NCBI GenBank assembly: GCA_024256285.1 | Contig: JACGUG010000004.1 | Location: 2,359-66,358 of the forward strand | From: an archaeon | GTDB lineage: Archaea; Thermoproteota; Nitrososphaeria; Nitrososphaerales; JACAEJ01 | DNA length: 64,000 nucleotides | Direction of reading: 5' to 3' | Shown here: positions 24,401 through 31,334 of the stretch, piece by piece | Position numbering within the stretch: the first letter of the stretch is position 1 | How the letters are laid out: the number at the start of each line of letters is the position of its first letter | Notes under the pieces: generated by a model | Told to the model about the DNA's origin: nothing | What the model saw: only the letters and a program-made list of their open reading frames with translations | Database searches by the model: none | Translations under genes and position numbers: made by a program

Positions 24401-24581
24401 ACTTGACTATCTGATAAGTCGGAAGATAAAGCTAGTGATCAACGTTCTGAAGTTGAAGGGAGTAAAATCCAAAAAGGTACTGGATGACGACTATCTGATA
24501 AGGAGGAAAGCTGTAGAGTTTGGGGTTCCTGTCATAACAAATCTTGAGCTTACAAACGCTTTGATAAATGCTATAAGATAA
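21414..24581 (+). CDS. carB: Carbamoyl-phosphate synthase large subunit
   Basis: The 1055-aa protein has duplicated ATP-grasp halves (GSGAIKIGEAGEFDYSG and GSGCYRIGSSVEFDW). It overlaps carA by 14 nt and starts with TTG. Confidence 0.95.
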   Translation: MAKFEWIKKVLILGSGAIKIGEAGEFDYSGAQAIKALKEEGIKVVLVNPNIATIQTDKKFVDKVYFLPINSEFVEKIIEKERPDGILLGFGGQTALNCGVDLAERGILEEWNVKVIGTGIRAIKIADDRDLFRKTMIENGIPIPRSKKANSISEAVQAADEISYPVMVRVAYTLGGQGSGAARDKEELIEIAMRGLAHSRIKQVLIEEYIGKWKEVEYEVMRDCEDNCVIVCNMENFDPMGVHTGDSIVIAPSQTLTNREYHLLRMAAFKVIRALGIIGECNIQFAIDPNSERFKVIEVNSRLSRSSALASKATGYPIAYIAAKLAVGYTLPELMNKVTGVTTACFEPALDYVVVKIPRWDFQKFKDVSRKIGTQMKSVGEVMAIGRTFEEALQKAIRMLDIDNELTDVDDIEVGKDDLFALEVIEHGLENPTDERIFYIVKALQSGIDVERIHMLTGIDPWFLNKIKGIIDFQEPLKKNLTPETIRRAKQLGFSDKKIGDMIKKSEAEIRRIRKSLGIVPVIKQIDTLAAEWPAVTNYLYLTYNGDKDDIEISRKSKVVVLGSGCYRIGSSVEFDWCCVNMAWALKRKGIEEVIMINYNPETVSTDYDILDKLYFEELTLERVLDIVEREFPDGVVVSVGGQIPNNLAMKLAGNDVKILGTSAEDIDRAEDRSKFSTILDELGIAQPRWSKLETIEKAKEFAKKIGYPVLIRPSYVLSGSAMNVAFDKKQLEDYLKRATKVSKEYPVVITKFITNAKEVEVDGVCDGENVFIGAIIEHVENAGIHSGDATMSIPSIDISESIKDTIRDYTRRIARRLNIRGPFNIQYIMKDGDVYVIECNLRASRSMPFVSKTVGINLMDVAADAILGKRIKDGEASANKFGVKVPQFSFMRLEGADPITGVEMVSTGEVACFGETFEEAFLKALIAGGLNIPQKGDPILITVGGDKESLISIAKKFFKKEFQIYATEHTAEALIKNDIKCEILHKVSEEKQPNILDYLISRKIKLVINVLKLKGVKSKKVLDDDYLIRRKAVEFGVPVITNLELTNALINAIR

Positions 24582-24713
24582 CCGATATCCGCCAAAGATC
24601 ATTAACATGGATCGGCTCAAGTTGATTTGTACCATATACATACCTTCAGATATTCCAAAGGGGCCCATCTGAACATAAAAACCTGCAACTTATCTAATTT
24701 TACTGGCCGATGA

Positions 24714-25036
24714 ATCCATAACATAGGAGGTTTGGCAATAGCAGATCTTTTTTTAGTTTCCATACAGACAGGCATGATTACTTGGTTCTAGTGCTTCACA
24801 TGAGGTCCCTCAAGAGTTGAGTGATTTTGAATTCTAATTCATGGAGAATGGAAAAAGTACAAGGCATTGTTTTCAACCTTTTTTCAGCCCTCACCATAAT
24901 TCCAAGCAGTCTCTTAGTTTACTTTGCCGCTACAATCATAGATCGATACTACCTTCTGCTACTTTTCGCTACAGGTAACTTCATTTATATCGCTGCTTCA
25001 GATCTAATTCCTGAAATTAAGTCTGGAGAAAATTGA
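24714..25036 (+). pseudogene. ZIP-family metal transporter remnant (C-terminal part, with a stop and a frameshift)
   Basis: IHNIGGLAIADLFLVSIQTGMITWF is followed by a stop. HEVPQELSDF is followed by a frame change. Then comes ILNS…VFNLFSALT…ATGNFIYIAASDLIPE. HE.PQE.GDF is the ZIP signature, and the N-terminal half of the gene is missing. Confidence 0.6.
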
Positions 25037-25196
25037 AAGAGGGTTTAGCACACTTTTGCCTTCATAATAGGTATTCCGTTTATTGTCTGTAAGAGTAGTT
25101 TGGGGGCTTAAAGGGAAAGATTAGTCCAAGATTGTATAGGTGTATATACATCATGGCTATCTGACTTATTTATAGAGATAAGTTAAACTTAAGCAG

Positions 25197-25484
25197 TTAT
25201 TTTTTAAGAGCATCGATCAAGTCGTCGATAGTGATCGCTACCATCGTTAAAGTTTGGAGTGTTCCTCTTGAACCAAGTTCTACGGCTACTCTAGTTACTG
25301 TTTTATCGTCTGGGGCTTCAAGAATATTTATAAAATCATAAGGACCTAAAACTGCATATTGAACCAAAATTTTTGCGCCCATGGCTTCAACTTCCTTGTT
25401 GACTTCCTTGATTCTTTCAGGCTTAACTTTGATCGTCTTTCTTCCTTCATCAGTAAGGGTTGTCAACATTACGTAGATGGGCAT
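25197..25484 (-). CDS. GYD domain protein
   Basis: MPIYVMLTTLTDEGRKTI…ILVQYAVLGPYDFINILEAPDD…TLTMVAI is the typical GYD pattern. The preferred start is the ATG at 25484. Confidence 0.7.
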   Translation of the reverse strand: MPIYVMLTTLTDEGRKTIKVKPERIKEVNKEVEAMGAKILVQYAVLGPYDFINILEAPDDKTVTRVAVELGSRGTLQTLTMVAITIDDLIDALKK

Positions 25485-25736
25485 AGCTTCGGATATTTTG
25501 TAGGCACTTATTAATCTTTCCGAGCATCCTTCTCTTAAGAAGATCTGGACCATGAGAATACTACTATTGATTGCTGTTTTGTTCGACTTAGGACGAATTC
25601 TCCTTCTTTGATACGAGGTTCAAAGGCAAGAATTATTTATCAGAATGATCATACCTATCACAAACTACCTCAAAGCCTAGCTTCTGAACATGGTTTAAGT
25701 CGTCATCTTCCCCTTTCCAATGACTTTACTTTCAAC

Positions 25737-25886
25737 TTATCTCTTCATAACGTACTTGGCAGGCTCTTTATCGAATGTTTGTTTGCATAAGGAGGAGCAG
25801 AAGTAGTATGTCTGCCCTTTATATTCAGACTTGTGCTCTGCAGTCTTTTCGTTAACATCCATTCCACAGATTGGATCCTTAGCCAT
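25737..25886 (-). CDS. 49-aa YHS/TRASH-domain metal-binding protein (putative copper chaperone), not in the ORF track
   Basis: It encodes MAKDPICGMDVNEKTAEHKSEYKGQTYYFCSSLCKQTFDKEPAKYVMKR. GGAGGTGAG lies 5 nt upstream of the ATG, and the start is 7 nt after the copA stop. Confidence 0.7.
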   Translation of the reverse strand: MAKDPICGMDVNEKTAEHKSEYKGQTYYFCSSLCKQTFDKEPAKYVMKR

Positions 25887-25893
25887 ATAACTC

Positions 25894-27984
25894 TCACCTC
25901 CTTTTTATCTGGAACTTCTTAAGTGTAAGGGAGTTGGTAATGACGCTTACTGAGCTCATCGCCATAGCGATGGCTGCGAATACGGGACTTAACAGCCCGG
26001 AGGCGGCTACCGGTATGAAGCCTGTGTTATACGCAAAGGCCCAGAACAGGTTCTGCTTGATCTTGCTCATCGTCTTCTTGCTGAGCTTTATCGAAGCAAC
26101 TACGTCACGTAGATCATCCTTGATAAGCACTATTCCTCCGGTCTCAACGGCTACGTCTGTTCCGCTTCCAAGGGCGATCCCTATATCTGCTTGTGCGAGG
26201 GCTGGAGCATCGTTTATTCCATCCCCAACCATGGCCACAACCTTACCTTCTTTTTGGAGACCCTTGATTACCAAAGCTTTCTGGCCAGGGAGCACTTCGG
26301 AGATGACTTTGTCGATGCCCAGTTGTTGGGCGATTGCCTTGGCGGTTCTCCGGTTGTCACCGGTAAGCATAACCACCTCCAACCCCATTCCTTTCAGATC
26401 GTCTACGGCCTCTTTCGCGCTCTCCTTGATCGTATCGGCTACAGCGATCACACCAGCAAGGCTTCCGTTAAGGGCGAGGAGCGTTGCGGTCTTTCCTTCA
26501 TCCTCCAGTTTCTGAATCTTATCTTCTTGGGCTTCTATAGAGATGTTGTTGTCACGCATCAACTTCCTATTTCCAAGTAGAATCTCTGTATCGGAGTGAC
26601 TTGCCTTTACACCGTGACCTGGGACTGCTTCAAAGTAAGTTGGGTCAGGGACCTCAAGCCCCATTTCTTCTACTCTTCTAATTATGGCTTCTCCGAGGGG
26701 ATGCTCTGAACCCTTTTCTGAGATGGCTGCGAATCTTAGAACGTCTCTTTCAGTTGTGTTTGAAAGCGGCACTACATCTGTTACCGATGGTATGCCTTTT
26801 GTTAGGGTGCCAGTCTTGTCGAATACTATGGTCTGTACTTTGTAGGCTTTCTCCAGATACTCCCCCCCCTTTATCAGGATTCCACTCTCCGCACCCTTCC
26901 CCACTCCCACGATTATGGCTGCTGGTGTGGCAAGTCCCAATGCACATGGACACGCGATTATCAGGACCGCTACCAGAGCGGTGAAGCCTTGGATGAAGCT
27001 CCCAGCTAGAAAGAGCCATGTTGCAAAGGCCCCCAGAGCTATCAGGACTACTAAAGGCACGAAGTAGCCGGATACTCTGTCCGCCAAACGTTCTATCGGA
27101 GCTCGAGCTACAGACGCCTCCTCGACCAGCTTCACTATCTGTGCGAGTGTCGTGTCAGATCCAACCTTGGTGGCTCTTATCCTCAACATGCCGCTCTTGT
27201 TTATCGTCGCGCCTATCGCCTCATCGCCGACTTTCTTCTCAACTGGGATGCTTTCACCAGTGATCATCTTCTCATCCACACTCGAGTACCCATCTGTTAC
27301 AATACCGTCGACAGGGATCTTCTCGCCGGGTCTGACTACAACGATGTCTCCTACGCTCACCTCCTCGACAGGGACTTCGATCTCCTTTCCTTCTCGTATC
27401 ACTCTAGCCATCTTGGGCTGGAGACCGAGTAGCTTTCTTACCGCATCTGTCGCCCTTCTTTGCATTGCATGTTCAAGTAGCTTTCCTAGGAGTATGAAGC
27501 CTATGATTAGGGCAGCAGTTTCAAAGTATACAACTCTGGCATTGGGAGGTACCAAAGCTGGGAAGAAGGTAACGACAGTACTGTATCCCCATGCAGCGGA
27601 TGTTCCAATGGCTATCAGTGTATCCATATTGGCTGAACGAGATTTGATAGCGTGCAGAAAGCCCCTGTAGAACCTTTTTCCAGCGATGAATTGCACTGGA
27701 GTTGCAAGGAGAAAGAGCCAGAACTCTATCTTTACAAAGCTCGGAAGAAGATTAACGATGGCTTCTAGACCTATAAGGTCCGCCATGCTGAAGAGTAGCA
27801 GAGGGATCCCAAGGATGAAGCTCAGAGCAGTCATGCGCTTCAGATTTCTAACTTCGATCTCAGGTCTGAGGAAGGTCTGTAGGCAAGCATTGCTGCAGAA
27901 ATAGTATTCAGTTCCACGCACAGTGGCCCGTAGTGCATCGGGGCTTTCACGAACGAACATTCCGCAGATAGGGTCCTTGGGCAT
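25894..27984 (-). CDS. copA: Cu(I)-translocating P1B-type ATPase (CPC type) with an N-terminal TRASH/YHS metal-binding domain
   Basis: The N-terminus has DPICGMFV…[12 protein letters not shown]. Other motifs are TGES, the transmembrane CPC ([13 protein letters not shown]), DKTGTLT and GDGINDAP. Confidence 0.92.
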
Positions 27985-28000
27985 CTGATTCCCTCCTCGA

Positions 28001-28411
28001 TCAGTCAGGTCTCGGTCTCCAGCCCAGAGCTAGGGCTCCTCCAACGATACCAAGGACAGCTCCTATATAGAAGCCTCCCATACCTAGGAAGCTGATTATC
28101 GAGAAGAGCAGAATTATAGTGCCCCAAGCTTTATGCTCTTCTGGACGTGTATTAAGCATCACTGCACCTATGATCACGATTATCCCAGACACCAAGCCTA
28201 TGAATGAAAGGCCGCCCATGAAACCGAAGGGGACTCCAAAGCTCCCCATCATCCAGTGGTAGCCTCCCATCATACCTCCGAATCCACCCATCATTCCACC
28301 AAAGCCTCCATACATGAACCACATGAATGCCATGCCTCCGCCTACAAGCATCAGTACCCCACCTATCAGGGATAAGATGAATGCAGCTTCAGGCTTCTCT
28401 TGGGAACTCAT
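28001..28411 (-). CDS. Met/Gly-rich integral membrane protein of unknown family
   Basis: About 4 predicted transmembrane segments. One loop reads [43 protein letters not shown]. It lies 16 nt upstream of copA and 19 nt downstream of the PepSY-like gene. Confidence 0.6.
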
Positions 28412-28430
28412 CTTTCTATCTCACCTCCTA

Positions 28431-29039
28431 TCAATTATGCTCCTCCATTCCTATAAATTCACCATGCCAGCTGTGATACCACACATCGCCGGTATAGCCG
28501 TTCACACTCAACATCCCAGACATCCTTCCGTCTATTGAAACATCCATGGTGTAGTAGCCATAGAACATCTTGGGCTCCTCTACACTTGCACCTGGAATGT
28601 TCGTGTCCAACCATCTTTGGCCGTATCCTGAAGCTTCCTTAGCGTCTATAGGCATAGAAGCCGTGGGGTTGATGACCCTTCCCATATGTCCATACTTCTG
28701 GTTCCACATCATATTCGGCCCTGGCTCAAAAACTATCCTTCCAGTATACCTGTCTACTAAGAGCTCGAAGGCGTTTATCCCTATGCTCTTCTCCTGAACT
28801 ATGATATAGAAGTGGTTGGAGAACTCCATGATCTCTTCGATTCTATAGCCCCCACCTAAACTAGATAGATACCGCTCGACTAGCTCTTCGGCTTGCTCTA
28901 TGCTATCCACAGCCTCGGCCGAATACAGAGCAGGTGAAAATGAGATAGAAATGACAAGTGCAACAGCTACCAACCCTAGGACAAGGACTAGCAACGCTAC
29001 GATCGGAAACCGACGTTGCTCATCTTGTTTTACTTTCAT
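28431..29039 (-). CDS. Membrane-anchored extracytoplasmic protein with PepSY-like repeats
   Basis: An N-terminal transmembrane anchor is followed by two modules ending …LLVDRYTGRIVFEP and …LSVNGYTGDVWYHSWHG, which resemble PepSY folds. The call is by eye. Confidence 0.5.
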   Translation of the reverse strand: MKVKQDEQRRFPIVALLVLVLGLVAVALVISISFSPALYSAEAVDSIEQAEELVERYLSSLGGGYRIEEIMEFSNHFYIIVQEKSIGINAFELLVDRYTGRIVFEPGPNMMWNQKYGHMGRVINPTASMPIDAKEASGYGQRWLDTNIPGASVEEPKMFYGYYTMDVSIDGRMSGMLSVNGYTGDVWYHSWHGEFIGMEEHN

Positions 29040-29090
29040 ATCAATACCTCCACCTTATTATATGTTAATGGAGGAAGAAGTACTTGCCCC

Positions 29091-29108
29091 TTAACATCTG
29101 TAAAGTTT
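29091..29108 (+). promoter_or_regulatory. Candidate operator (site B) upstream of the PepSY-like/copA operon
   Basis: TTAACATCTGTAAAGTTT matches 15/18 with the reverse complement of 29782-29800. It lies in the 83-nt gap between the copR-like stop and the operon start. Confidence 0.35.
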
Positions 29109-29122
29109 TGGACGAGTAGACT

Positions 29123-29749
29123 TTACGACTCTTCAGGAAACCTCTTCAGCCTCGCTGCATACCTCTCCTTGTAGGCTTCAAGGCAGGTATTACAGCAGAA
29201 GAACCGGGTCCCCTCCCCCACCCTAAGGGTATGTGGCCTCCCTGCGATCTCACCTCCACAGTAGTCGCAGGCCATCCTGATCTTCAGCTCAGGCTTCAAG
29301 AGGAGAGAAGGCCCTTCCTTCACCACCTTCGTAACTATCTGGGTTGTAGTCAGGGAGACTCCTGGCAGGGTGGTAACTTCCTCCTCGATGAAGCGCTGAA
29401 GATCCTCCAACCCTTCCACCATCAACTTCGCCACCAAGTTGCTCTCCCCCGCTGTAGTGAAGACATCGATCACCTCTTCCTTCAAGGCGAGAGACTCCTG
29501 CACTTCGCTTAGATCTTTGGCTTCAACTCGGAGATGCAGAATTGCCATGACTCCCTGTTCCACCTTGGTAAGGTCGAAGATCGGGGCGAAACCTTTGATG
29601 AAGCCCGCATCCTTCATCCGCCTGATCCTGGCCTCCACTGTAGGGGTCGATACTCCAACACGTTTAGCTACCTGCCTGTAGGAGAGCCTTCCATCCTCCA
29701 TCAGGGCCCTTAAGATGGCTATATCCAGACTGTCGAGGATTAGGGGCAT
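29123..29749 (-). CDS. Lrp/AsnC-family regulator with a C-terminal TRASH domain (CopR/CopT-like copper-responsive regulator)
   Basis: The N-terminal HTH reads LDSLDIAILRALMEDGRLSYRQVAKRVGVSTPTVEARIRRM. The C-terminus reads CDYCGGEI…FFCCNTCLEAYKERY. Confidence 0.8.
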   Translation of the reverse strand: MPLILDSLDIAILRALMEDGRLSYRQVAKRVGVSTPTVEARIRRMKDAGFIKGFAPIFDLTKVEQGVMAILHLRVEAKDLSEVQESLALKEEVIDVFTTAGESNLVAKLMVEGLEDLQRFIEEEVTTLPGVSLTTTQIVTKVVKEGPSLLLKPELKIRMACDYCGGEIAGRPHTLRVGEGTRFFCCNTCLEAYKERYAARLKRFPEES

Positions 29750-29781
29750 CTTACGGGAGTTAGATGGTTATCACTCAAGAT

Positions 29782-29800
29782 AAACTTTACGTATGTGAAA
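29782..29800 (+). promoter_or_regulatory. Candidate operator (site A) upstream of the copR-like gene
   Basis: AAACTTTACGTATGTGAAA is internally pseudo-palindromic (TTTAC…GTGAA). It lies 33-51 nt upstream of the copR-like ATG and is similar to site B. Confidence 0.35.
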
Positions 29801-30161
29801 CGTTAGCCACAGGAACTTGACATTCGTTAAGGTTTGCTTTGTTGCAGGCGGCATCCCCCACTTAAAACTTTGGTTCCACTAGCAACGGATTGGCTTTGAG
29901 AACATGGTGGACAAAGAGGTATGTAACGTTCAAACTATCAGCTACAGAATTGGTATTATACTCTGCCCCTCTTTGAACGAATTAAAAGATAGTCCCCTTA
30001 TGAGACTTTGCTAGCTCATGATACATCAAAGCATGTTTCTTTATAGATTCTTATGTCTCTGATGTTAAAAAGAATGTTTTATGTTCTTCCTTTAAAAATT
30101 TCAGTTGACAATTCACATCTGAATGCATATCATCTCACCAATAAATAAAAAAACAGATAAA

Positions 30162-30176
30162 TATAACGCTGTTATA
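30162..30176. promoter_or_regulatory. TATAAC-GCT-GTTATA palindrome (perfect), orphan copy in a 700-bp non-coding gap
   Basis: It is an exact 6+3+6 inverted repeat, and no ORF of 60 aa or more lies nearby. Confidence 0.5.
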
Positions 30177-30446
30177 GTAATGGGCTAGGGTGATAGTTCA
30201 CCTTGCATATTTGGCGATAGCACTACCACTATTTTAGTTTTGGTTTACAGAAAAGAGGTCTAGAGGACCATAACTTGCTATGTGGTCCATGAAAAATAAT
30301 CACGTCTCAGCGAGGATTTCTTGGCTGTTGAGCGAAGAATTCCTTGGATATCTATACAGCTAACAAATGGGGCTCATAATGTTACACCCGTACTCTTCGT
30401 CTACGATGGTCTGAGTATTTTTTCATGACCTACATTCAGCAAACTC

Positions 30447-31334
30447 TCACATTCGCCCTATTTCTAGTATGCGTTCTTGATGTGTCAACACGTTCATTCT
30501 TCTTCCTCTAACAAAGCTGATTATAGTTGTTCCAGTCAGTCGGGCAACTTCGATACCAGAGTAGATGGCCGCAGAGATGGAGGCGACTATCGGGATCTTC
30601 ATACGTGCTGCTTTTAAGACTATGTCTCCTGTGAGTCGTCCGCTTGAAGCCAGAAAACATTCATCGAAGCCAATCTTTTTAAGGGCTACTGCACCTATTA
30701 CTTTGTCTACCGCGTTATGGCGCCCCACATCCTCTGCCCAGACCAAAAGATCGCCTCTATGGGAGTAGATGGCTGCTATGTGGACTCCTCCTGTTTTACG
30801 GTATACTCCATCGAGGGTATTGAGGCGTTTGACCGACTCCGCTATGATTTTTGCTTCGACCTTAGATCTGGATGCAGATCGGGGGAGGCTTAGTCTATCC
30901 ATAAGTTTAGAGAGAGGCCAGTAGTCGGCGGAGCCACATGCAGACACGATCAATCGGGCGAAGGGTTGTGAGACAGCAATCCGTTTTTCGGCATCGACAC
31001 TCGGTGTTAGCCTGACTTGACAATTTCCATCTTTATCTATTTGTATTCTTCGAATCTCCTCTAAAGATTTCAGTACCCCTTCTGAGAGGAGGTGGCCGAC
31101 AGCCAACTCTTTTAACTGGCCTGGAGAGCAAAGAATCGAGACATAGCGGGTTTTGTTCAGAAATATGTGTAGGGGCGTCTCCTCTGCCACAAAATCAATT
31201 TTTGTCTCTATTTTTTTAGACGAAAGATTTATCTGTGTAACTTGAACCTTCTTCAAATCGATCCTCCTCAGTTGGAGATAAGTTAAGAGTTCTCCCTCGG
31301 AAAGGTCTCCTATATCTGCTTGTGAACATGTCAA
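30447..31334 (-). CDS. fdhD: FdhD-family sulfurtransferase (formate dehydrogenase / Mo-bisPGD sulfuration accessory protein)
   Basis: GGVHIAAIY…EDVGRHNAVDKVIGA…SGRLTGDIVLKAARMKIPIVASISA is typical of FdhD. The start codon is TTG. Confidence 0.8.
   Translation of the reverse strand: MTCSQADIGDLSEGELLTYLQLRRIDLKKVQVTQINLSSKKIETKIDFVAEETPLHIFLNKTRYVSILCSPGQLKELAVGHLLSEGVLKSLEEIRRIQIDKDGNCQVRLTPSVDAEKRIAVSQPFARLIVSACGSADYWPLSKLMDRLSLPRSASRSKVEAKIIAESVKRLNTLDGVYRKTGGVHIAAIYSHRGDLLVWAEDVGRHNAVDKVIGAVALKKIGFDECFLASSGRLTGDIVLKAARMKIPIVASISAAIYSGIEVARLTGTTIISFVRGRRMNVLTHQERILEIGRM

Follow-up and report, generated by a model that had tools for sequence, protein, structure and literature searches.

A copper-efflux operon of known type in the metagenome-assembled genome of an uncultured archaeon (Nitrososphaerales, lineage JACAEJ01; assembly GCA_024256285.1, contig JACGUG010000004.1) contains an undescribed, widely conserved accessory module of two genes, which we refer to as open reading frame (ORF) A and ORF B (ORF-A and ORF-B). 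The operon occupies positions 25,737 to 29,749 of a 64,000-nucleotide (nt) stretch of that contig, which was analysed as a whole and is called the window below. ORF-A encodes a membrane-anchored ectoprotein and ORF-B a four-helix membrane protein with a predicted external loop rich in methionine (Met), glycine and aromatic residues. The conserved unit is the ORF-A/ORF-B pair, and it is with the Met-rich motif that linkage to copper genes goes together. Taken together, the evidence makes it very likely that the pair belongs to copper homeostasis.

An earlier model-made reading of this region from its letters, hereafter the sequence-only reading, had described a minus-strand regulator followed by a tight four-gene operon with gaps of 19, 16 and 7 nt, and all five ORFs were recovered where it had placed them (Table 1). 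The spacers from the regulator through ORF-A, ORF-B and CopA to the YHS gene measured 83, 19, 16 and 7 nt. A GGAGG-type ribosome-binding site was found 5-10 nt ahead of each of ORF-A, ORF-B, CopA and the YHS gene; that of the YHS gene, which begins 7 nt past copA, reads GAGGTGA and lies 7 nt upstream. Because gaps of 7-19 nt leave no space for internal promoters, the genes from ORF-A to YHS almost certainly form a single transcript, which the regulator may share, or it may have a transcript of its own.

Table 1 Features of the cop locus in the window (aa, amino acids)
Feature	Positions	Strand	Description
Lrp/AsnC-TRASH regulator	29123-29749	minus	208 aa; CopR/CopT-type; C-terminal TRASH with CDYC...CCNTC
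Regulator/ORF-A spacer	29040-29122	minus	83 nt; holds the ORF-A ribosome-binding site and a 7-bp inverted repeat
ORF-A, N-terminally anchored ectoprotein	28431-29039	minus	202 aa; two homologous PepSY-like alpha+beta modules
ORF-B, four-helix membrane protein	28001-28411	minus	136 aa; DUF6114/DUF4064 (tetraspanin-like clan) scaffold
Met/Gly/aromatic loop 1 of ORF-B	28244-28309	minus	residues 35-56; predicted extracytoplasmic
CopA, P1B-1 Cu(I)/Ag(I)-exporting ATPase	25894-27984	minus	696 aa; N-terminal TRASH/YHS, no HMA domain
YHS/TRASH protein	25737-25886	minus	49 aa; counterpart of CopM-type copper chaperone

The regulator, the CPC-type TRASH-CopA and the small YHS/TRASH protein had been taken for the archaeal cop triad, and profile searches, motifs and the literature bore this out. 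In Pfam, the regulator matched HTH_AsnC-type (62.5 bits, E 3.2e-17), AsnC_trans_reg (49.4 bits, E 4.3e-13) and Arc_trans_TRASH (51 bits, E 1.5e-13), all three above their cut-offs. CopA scored 604 bits against NCBIfam TIGR01511 (cut-off 397) and 669 bits against TIGR01525, and matched E1-E2_ATPase, Hydrolase and, at residues 3-43, YHS in Pfam, the last at 30.1 bits, just below the cut-off of 30.3. Its translation shows CPC, DKTGT, N-x6-YN-x4-P and M-x2-SS-x5-N, which make up the P1B-1 Cu(I)/Ag(I) signature. The 49-aa protein is a YHS protein (69.3 bits against the cut-off of 30.3, E 2.8e-19), and the pattern C7...C30-x3-C34 is present both in it and in the N-terminus of CopA. The archaeal cop cluster of Sulfolobus/Saccharolobus, Pyrococcus and Thermococcus, as described in PMC7830388 (citing Ettema 2006), likewise groups an Lrp-type regulator with a C-terminal TRASH domain (CopR/CopT), a P1B-1 CopA and a small TRASH/YHS chaperone (CopM/CopZ), and the CopR of P. 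furiosus has a domain architecture identical to that of the window regulator (PMC7830388). On every sequence feature by which membership is judged, the window triad is thus a textbook archaeal cop cluster. It differs from the published one in that the metal-binding domain of CopA is TRASH/YHS rather than HMA, and in that ORF-A and ORF-B stand between regulator and pump. Since the published cluster consists of regulator, pump and chaperone only, the two genes are truly extra, as the sequence-only reading had held. Our literature search, whose coverage was incomplete, returned no publication that treats DUF6114, the ORF-A family or additional genes of archaeal cop operons. The genes flanking copA2/YHS in N. 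viennensis, known from copper-limitation data (PMC7785015), could not be confirmed as ORF-B homologues, and a homology search with a Nitrososphaerota-type ORF-B as query matched only proteins from metagenome-assembled genomes (MAGs).

The Met-rich loop of ORF-B, which had been placed at about 28231-28333, was found inside that range. We aligned ORF-B with 26 homologues that share 64-76% identity with the query. Its three pairs of adjacent Met residues (MM pairs), M40/41, M47/48 and M54/55, were at least 90% conserved, a degree of sequence conservation far beyond chance, and the number of GMMGG[FY]x units differed among the homologues. On average, loop 1 holds 6.2 Met, 11.8 Gly and 3.8 aromatic residues per 29.7 positions; it has no Cys and is almost uncharged. 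The sole MxxM-like element of ORF-B is MWFM at the end of the first transmembrane helix (TM1). The motif had been called tandem, which holds for the protein; in the DNA of the loop, Tandem Repeats Finder detected no tandem repeat. This result rules out DNA slippage as the source of the repeat and indicates that the periodicity of the loop is upheld by selection on the protein.

AlphaFold2 modelled ORF-B (mean predicted local distance difference test, pLDDT, 71) with helices at residues 5-37, 62-88, 90-109 and 115-130, and placed residues 37-59 in a low-confidence loop (pLDDT < 50) between TM1 and TM2, so that the Met segment is not buried in a helix. The numbers of Lys and Arg per sequence were 1.1 at the N-terminus, 0.27 in loop 1 (30 residues), 1.1 in loop 2, 0 in loop 3 and 1.6 at the C-terminus, which by the positive-inside rule gives a topology with both termini inside and loop 1 outside. 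The description of the Met segment as a loop in the sequence-only reading is supported by both predictions. Distant ORF-B paralogues bear C-terminal zinc ribbons, which fits a cytoplasmic C-terminus of this scaffold, and Staphylococcus aureus AuxB, a DUF4064 protein, has four helices and an intracellular C-terminus by experiment (PMC12505970). ORF-B is thus predicted to consist of four TM helices with both termini inside and an extracytoplasmic loop 1.

The earlier reading had treated both genes as unknown and had called for profile and structure searches of each. For ORF-B this no longer holds, its scaffold being catalogued and a relative, AuxB, characterised. ORF-B matched DUF6114 (PF19609) at 29.0 bits against a cut-off of 27.9, a borderline score that covers residues 65-132 only, and stayed below threshold for DUF4064 (PF13273; 18 bits, cut-off 32.1, E 0.0034). 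Its sequence is 100% identical to MCP8306943, and the nearest relative, from a Nitrososphaerales MAG, shares 78% identity. Among 774 homologues, nearly all from Bathyarchaeia, Nitrososphaeria and other archaeal MAGs, most have a precomputed PF19609 annotation and many have both PF19609 and PF13273. By sequence, ORF-B sits at the border of DUF6114 and is related to DUF4064/AuxB; its Met loop sets it apart. A Ctr1-like channel was considered an unlikely identity, as its helices are rich in Gly and have no polar or Met/His/Cys ligands in the membrane core.

Co-occurrence with copper genes in other genomes, which the sequence-only reading had proposed to test, was examined from the ORF-B side in 79 loci, one per GTDB species, with flanks of up to 10 kb, all derived from MAGs or metagenomes. 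The loci comprised 35 relatives with at least two MM pairs and 44 relatives with the same scaffold and no Met loop, the latter serving as a built-in control of lineage and genome type. A P1B ATPase related to the window CopA lay within 10 kb in 16/35 Met-loop species and in 1/44 loop-less species (Fisher p 2.3e-6). A free-standing YHS/TRASH gene, often directly upstream of the Met-loop ORF-B on the same strand, was present in 13/35 and 0/44 (p 5.6e-6), an adjacent ORF-A in 12/35 and 1/44 (p 1.4e-4) and any cop gene in 18/35 and 1/44 (p 2.3e-7), although the surveyed species are phylogenetically related and these p-values are therefore optimistic and overstate independence.

The same link was seen from the ORF-A side, for which 80 metagenomic loci were collected, 64 of them with enough downstream sequence. 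In the ten closest ORF-A homologues, ORF-B followed directly downstream at a distance of 17-37 nt (10/10). Across the 64 loci, the gene downstream of ORF-A was a DUF6114-type ORF-B in 17, and in another 8 it was a different small membrane protein with an MMGG loop between two helices and a cytoplasmic zinc ribbon, that is, an ORF-B-type loop on a different scaffold. Representatives of this partner are about 120 aa long, carry a C-terminal Zn_ribbon_3 (loop example, GWGMMGGYRSGMMRPGMMGSWG) and directly follow an ORF-A homologue on high-GC, probably bacterial contigs (L109 1023-1397, L124 691-1062, L125 1680-2048, L128 6961-7329, L141 1379-1726 and L162 10471-10842).

Gene order around the pair was highly variable. 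We found regulator-CopA-YHS-ORF-B in L032, YHS-ORF-B in L023, L025, L036, L052 and L062, CopA-ORF-A-ORF-B-YHS beside a PadR-TRASH regulator in L166, PadR-ORF-A-ORF-B divergent from an HMA-type CopA in L167, ArsR-DsrE-ORF-A-ORF-B in L168, ArsR-ATPase-ORF-B in L001, ORF-B divergent from regulator-ORF-A in L148 and, in the bacterial locus L173, SHOCT-ORF-A-CsoR divergent from a cupredoxin-HMA-YHS CopA. The pair is therefore flanked by four families of metal regulators, Lrp-TRASH, PadR(-TRASH), ArsR and CsoR. Neighbouring pumps included 13 P1B-1 ATPases of the CPC/TRASH type, 3 CPC pumps with HMA or other N-termini, and a further 7 or 8 CPH pumps with His-rich N-termini, that is, of the CopB type. 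Linkage that persists across regulator families, pump subtypes and shuffled gene orders indicates a common function rather than an inherited locus. As separate observations, OmpR-type response regulators stand directly downstream of ORF-A homologues on four high-GC contigs (L098, L102, L134 and L165), which suggests that the bacterial ORF-A family is sometimes wired to two-component systems, and genes for SAM-dependent methyltransferases immediately follow the ORF-A/ORF-B unit or the ORF-A/CsoR unit on three unrelated contigs (L166 7243-8691, L169 7076-7750 and L173 7338-7775).

ORF-A had no match in Pfam or NCBIfam, and by sequence it belongs to no described family, so that for this gene the label unknown stands. 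A profile search of 1.84 billion representative proteins gave 1,445 clusters at E <= 1e-3 and 496 at E <= 1e-30, counted at 50% identity, the former number being a lower bound. The AlphaFold2 model (pLDDT 81) has a TM helix at residues 13-33 and two modules at 47-104 and 133-200, each of one helix and four strands; compared by hhalign, the two modules prove homologous (probability 85%, E 6.5e-6). Between them runs a linker (residues 108-123, pLDDT < 50) that is predicted to be disordered and is the most conserved part of the protein. This inter-module Met/His linker is EPGPNMMWNQKYGHMG in the window and reads EPGPNMMWNxKYG(H/M)MG in the family, with M111, W112, N113, K115 and Y116 invariant. 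At the C-terminus, W-Y-H-x-W-H-G is invariant (WYHSWHG in the window), including H189 and H192, and several Glu and Asp residues are invariant as well. Such Met/His/Trp and Glu/Asp positions are what a metal site would be expected to show. One family representative, P0328 (377 aa), has a C-terminal extension that looks rhodanese-like, as judged by eye from its sequence.

The description of ORF-A as PepSY-like held weakly, and as a description of fold. The PepSY (PF03413) hidden Markov model (HMM) did not match the window ORF-A even at E 10; it gave sub-threshold matches in 7/32 ORF-A homologues, with a best E of 0.0015, and homologue P0213 reached 17.8 bits over residues 39-93 against a cut-off of 24. 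ORF-A may be likened to PepSY proteins in its predicted single helix on a four-stranded sheet, and shares with them a predicted extracytoplasmic, membrane-anchored placement and the characteristic '(D/N)xxTGxV' strand at the end. Its invariant Met/Trp/His motifs are not PepSY features. The top Foldseek match of ORF-A was FoxB, a PepSY_TM protein, at a weak and non-significant level, and the ORF-A profile gave noise only against the sequences of solved structures. According to PMC13038864, FoxB and CrpH are PepSY_TM reductases, and CrpH connects PepSY_TM proteins to copper supply. ORF-A differs from these in having a single anchor helix instead of a haem-binding four-helix membrane domain.

A further argument, of the 'Rosetta stone' kind, comes from Met-rich segments fused in cis. 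Most representatives of the ORF-A family are longer than the window ORF-A and contain an extra low-complexity linker, rich in Met and Gly and sometimes in Met and Gln, between anchor helix and ectodomain; that of P0243 has five consecutive GGMMGG[RW]SG units. In 101 of the 120 representatives that bear the GP[NST]MMWN motif, the ectodomain is preceded by 60 or more residues, and of these 101, 64 have at least two MM pairs and 45 at least three; extra MM pairs in the inter-module linker occur in 78 of the 120. The fusion of the Met/Gly segment to the ORF-A ectodomain in most lineages implies that the two belong together, and in the window lineage they are, by sequence, split between the ORF-B loop and ORF-A. 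A cupredoxin gene of a Bathyarchaeota MAG (L068 8995-9729), directly upstream of an ORF-B homologue, encodes an N-terminal MMGG linker, PPGMMGGYGGGYSGMMGQG. This protein matches Pfam Copper-bind at 28.2 bits (cut-off 21.2), and its sequence ties the MMGG motif to a family whose link with copper is established. Judged from these sequences, the finding of wider reach is the ORF-A family, in which the MMGG-rich segment is usually part of the protein itself.

We propose that a Sulfolobus/Pyrococcus-type cop operon acquired a two-gene module that would handle copper at the outer face of the membrane. CopR would sense cytoplasmic Cu(I) and turn the operon on, the YHS protein would supply Cu(I) to CopA, and CopA would expel it. 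ORF-A and ORF-B, in the same membrane, would then capture the expelled Cu(I)/Ag(I) by thioether (Met) ligands, and the captured metal would be buffered or handed on away from the membrane. In this scheme, ORF-B would be a tetraspanin-like scaffold whose first external loop presents about six Met as three MM pairs among Gly and aromatic residues, and ORF-A its single-pass partner, whose duplicated PepSY-like ectodomain bears the invariant linker of Met, Trp and His and, at the C-terminus, HxxH. By prediction, the Met-rich elements of both proteins face outwards. The job of the pair would be that of CusF, CopC and PcoE-type proteins in the periplasm of double-membraned bacteria. From the sequences, Cu(I) binding by the Met segments seems somewhat more probable than not, and for the role of the pair as an outward-facing Cu(I)/Ag(I) acceptor or buffer accessory to copper efflux the chances appear about even. 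Metal binding, the physical pairing of ORF-A with ORF-B and the direction of copper flow are what we infer here; a partnership of scaffold and single-pass protein is suggested by analogy with the AuxB-PknB heterodimer.

Met-rich Cu(I) sites are known from the Mets motifs of Ctr1, from CusF/CusB and PcoE/SilE, and from the Met-rich inserts of CueO, PcoA and CopA oxidases. The likeness to such clusters that the sequence-only reading had drawn was upheld in composition and predicted location, and failed in spacing and fold. Like sites of the Ctr1, CusF and PcoE type, the segments described here are Cys-free Met clusters in flexible, predicted outward-facing stretches linked to copper export genes, and aromatic residues stand beside Met, as in the Trp cation-pi site of CusF. 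They differ in their carrier, an integral four-helix protein or a PepSY-like ectoprotein, with no relationship in sequence or fold. AuxB, the only characterised DUF4064 protein (PMC12505970), shares with ORF-B its small size, its Pfam clan and, as predicted for ORF-B, four membrane helices and an intracellular C-terminus. AuxB has a conserved Trp at its dimer interface (Trp86), of which the conserved Trp96 of ORF-B may be the counterpart. AuxB pairs with a single-pass protein bearing extracellular domains, as is proposed for ORF-B and ORF-A. It has a long cytoplasmic GpsB-binding tail and no Met-rich loop, whereas ORF-B has a tail of 6 residues and a Met/Gly loop of 22-30 residues and scores below the DUF4064 threshold.

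Several observations, in addition to the optimistic p-values, weigh against the acceptor role. In place of the canonical MxM/MxxM arrangement of known sites, the loop has MM pairs spaced seven residues apart in a Gly matrix. Gly/Met-rich tails are known in proteins unrelated to copper, such as the C-terminus of GroEL. Structure searches gave no significant match for either ORF-A or ORF-B, and the function of AuxB is that of a protein-interaction scaffold in cell-envelope coordination and not that of a metal binder. Finally, 17/35 Met-loop ORF-B genes have no cop gene within 10 kb, some of them lying among housekeeping genes, and 39/64 ORF-A loci have no Met-rich partner gene downstream.

Part of this evidence could be accommodated by other functions. 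That the pair serves copper supply, passing Cu(I) pumped by CopA or CopB to extracytoplasmic cuproproteins (cupredoxins, oxidases) much as periplasmic chaperones serve the assembly of bacterial cbb3/aa3 oxidases, we regard as unlikely. The ORF-B homologue directly after the MMGG-linker cupredoxin in L068 fits such a role, as do the cupredoxin-like ORF that adjoins YHS-ORF-B in L023, the ORF-B beside a cytochrome b-like gene in L046, the many ORF-B genes away from resistance genes, and the mixture of Met with His/Glu/Asp ligands in ORF-A, which resembles two-site copper carriers such as CopC. Flanked by a copper-sensing regulator on one side and by an exporter and its chaperone on the other, the window genes instead have the layout of an inducible resistance operon; no cuproprotein gene lies near the window pair, and cupredoxin neighbours were found in only 1-2/35 loci. 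It appears improbable that ORF-B is an AuxB-like regulatory scaffold that pairs with ORF-A to tune signalling or the pump, its Met loop being an external copper or redox sensor. [quoted passage not shown] Against this, the window ORF-B has a short C-terminal tail and no cytoplasmic output domain; the operon already has a cytoplasmic sensor in the TRASH regulator, no kinase is nearby, and the number of Met residues, about 6 per loop and as many as tens in the linkers of fused ORF-A proteins, suggests a stoichiometric more than a sensory part.

Copper stress goes along with oxidative damage, and the exposed Met could form a sacrificial antioxidant shield that scavenges copper-generated oxidants at the membrane surface and needs no specific copper binding. 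The extreme Met density in flexible, exposed, Cys-free segments would suit this function, and the Met/Gln-rich variants P0263 and P0329 resemble bulk Met reservoirs more than defined sites. Even so, we consider it improbable: MM pairs that recur regularly as MM-x5 among aromatic residues, like the invariant motifs of ORF-A, suggest defined sites; no methionine sulfoxide reductase gene stands beside the pair in any annotated context; and it is with pumps, chaperones and copper sensors that the pair is linked, not with oxidative-stress genes. Roughly half of the family members lack nearby cop genes, as would be seen if ORF-A and ORF-B were general envelope proteins that came to lie inside the operon by chance. 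The enrichment of 16/35 against 1/44, the recurrence of linkage in shuffled orders with four regulator families and three pump subtypes, and the gaps of 7-19 nt in the window make such a coincidence extremely improbable.

How P1B pumps let go of Cu(I), and how the metal is then prevented from entering the cell again or harming the membrane, is well described only in double-membraned bacteria, through CusF/CusCBA, CueO, CopC and PcoE, and we know of no outer-face copper acceptor established for archaea and single-membrane bacteria. The locus provides a concrete, expressible candidate in the form of a two-protein Met-rich surface module. If the acceptor role is right, the textbook archaeal cop cluster gains a component, a large unannotated protein family and a subgroup of DUF6114 gain a function, and MMGG repeats together with GPNMMWN..KYG become a signature for annotating copper systems in metagenomes. 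A broader and more tentative possibility, to which we give rather less than an even chance, is that the ORF-A family with its MMGG segments, in cis or on partner proteins, forms a widespread class of proteins, so far overlooked, that accept Cu(I) from CopA/CopB pumps at the outer face. Such a class would be the counterpart of CusF, CopC and PcoE in archaea and single-membrane bacteria, and would answer what takes the copper where there is no true periplasm. Should binding fail, the module would still be a conserved member of the copper regulon.

The 83 nt that separate the regulator from ORF-A could serve as a promoter or operator region. At 29100-29126, overlapping the stop codon of the regulator, lies a perfect 7-bp inverted repeat, GTAAAGT-N13-ACTTTAC, which occurs once within the window; its GTAAAGTTTA recurs at 29781-29790, 32-41 nt upstream of the regulator start codon. 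The repeat was absent from all 174 fetched loci and is thus not supported as a conserved operator. As leads only, the repeat and the copy at 29781-29790 are candidate B recognition element (BRE)/TATA or CopR operator sites.

Base composition changes across the locus, with a G+C content of 0.47-0.53 over the regulator-to-CopA block (26000-30000) against 0.37-0.42 in the flanks (24500-26000 and 30000-30500); the YHS gene and the downstream GYD gene fall in the low-GC portion. The rise could reflect horizontal acquisition of the cop block or the Gly/Ala-rich composition of membrane proteins. The neighbours on the minus strand, a GYD-domain protein downstream of the cop block (25197-25553, E 1.5e-29) and, upstream, FdhD, a formate dehydrogenase accessory sulfurtransferase (30447-31334, E 1.1e-66), have no obvious copper link. 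On the plus strand, a 71-aa ORF at 24821-25036 has a likeness to ZIP metal transporters that is confined to their C-terminal end (Pfam Zip, E 0.0022, below threshold; profile positions 229-297 of 323) and may be the remnant of a metal importer gene just outside the cop block.

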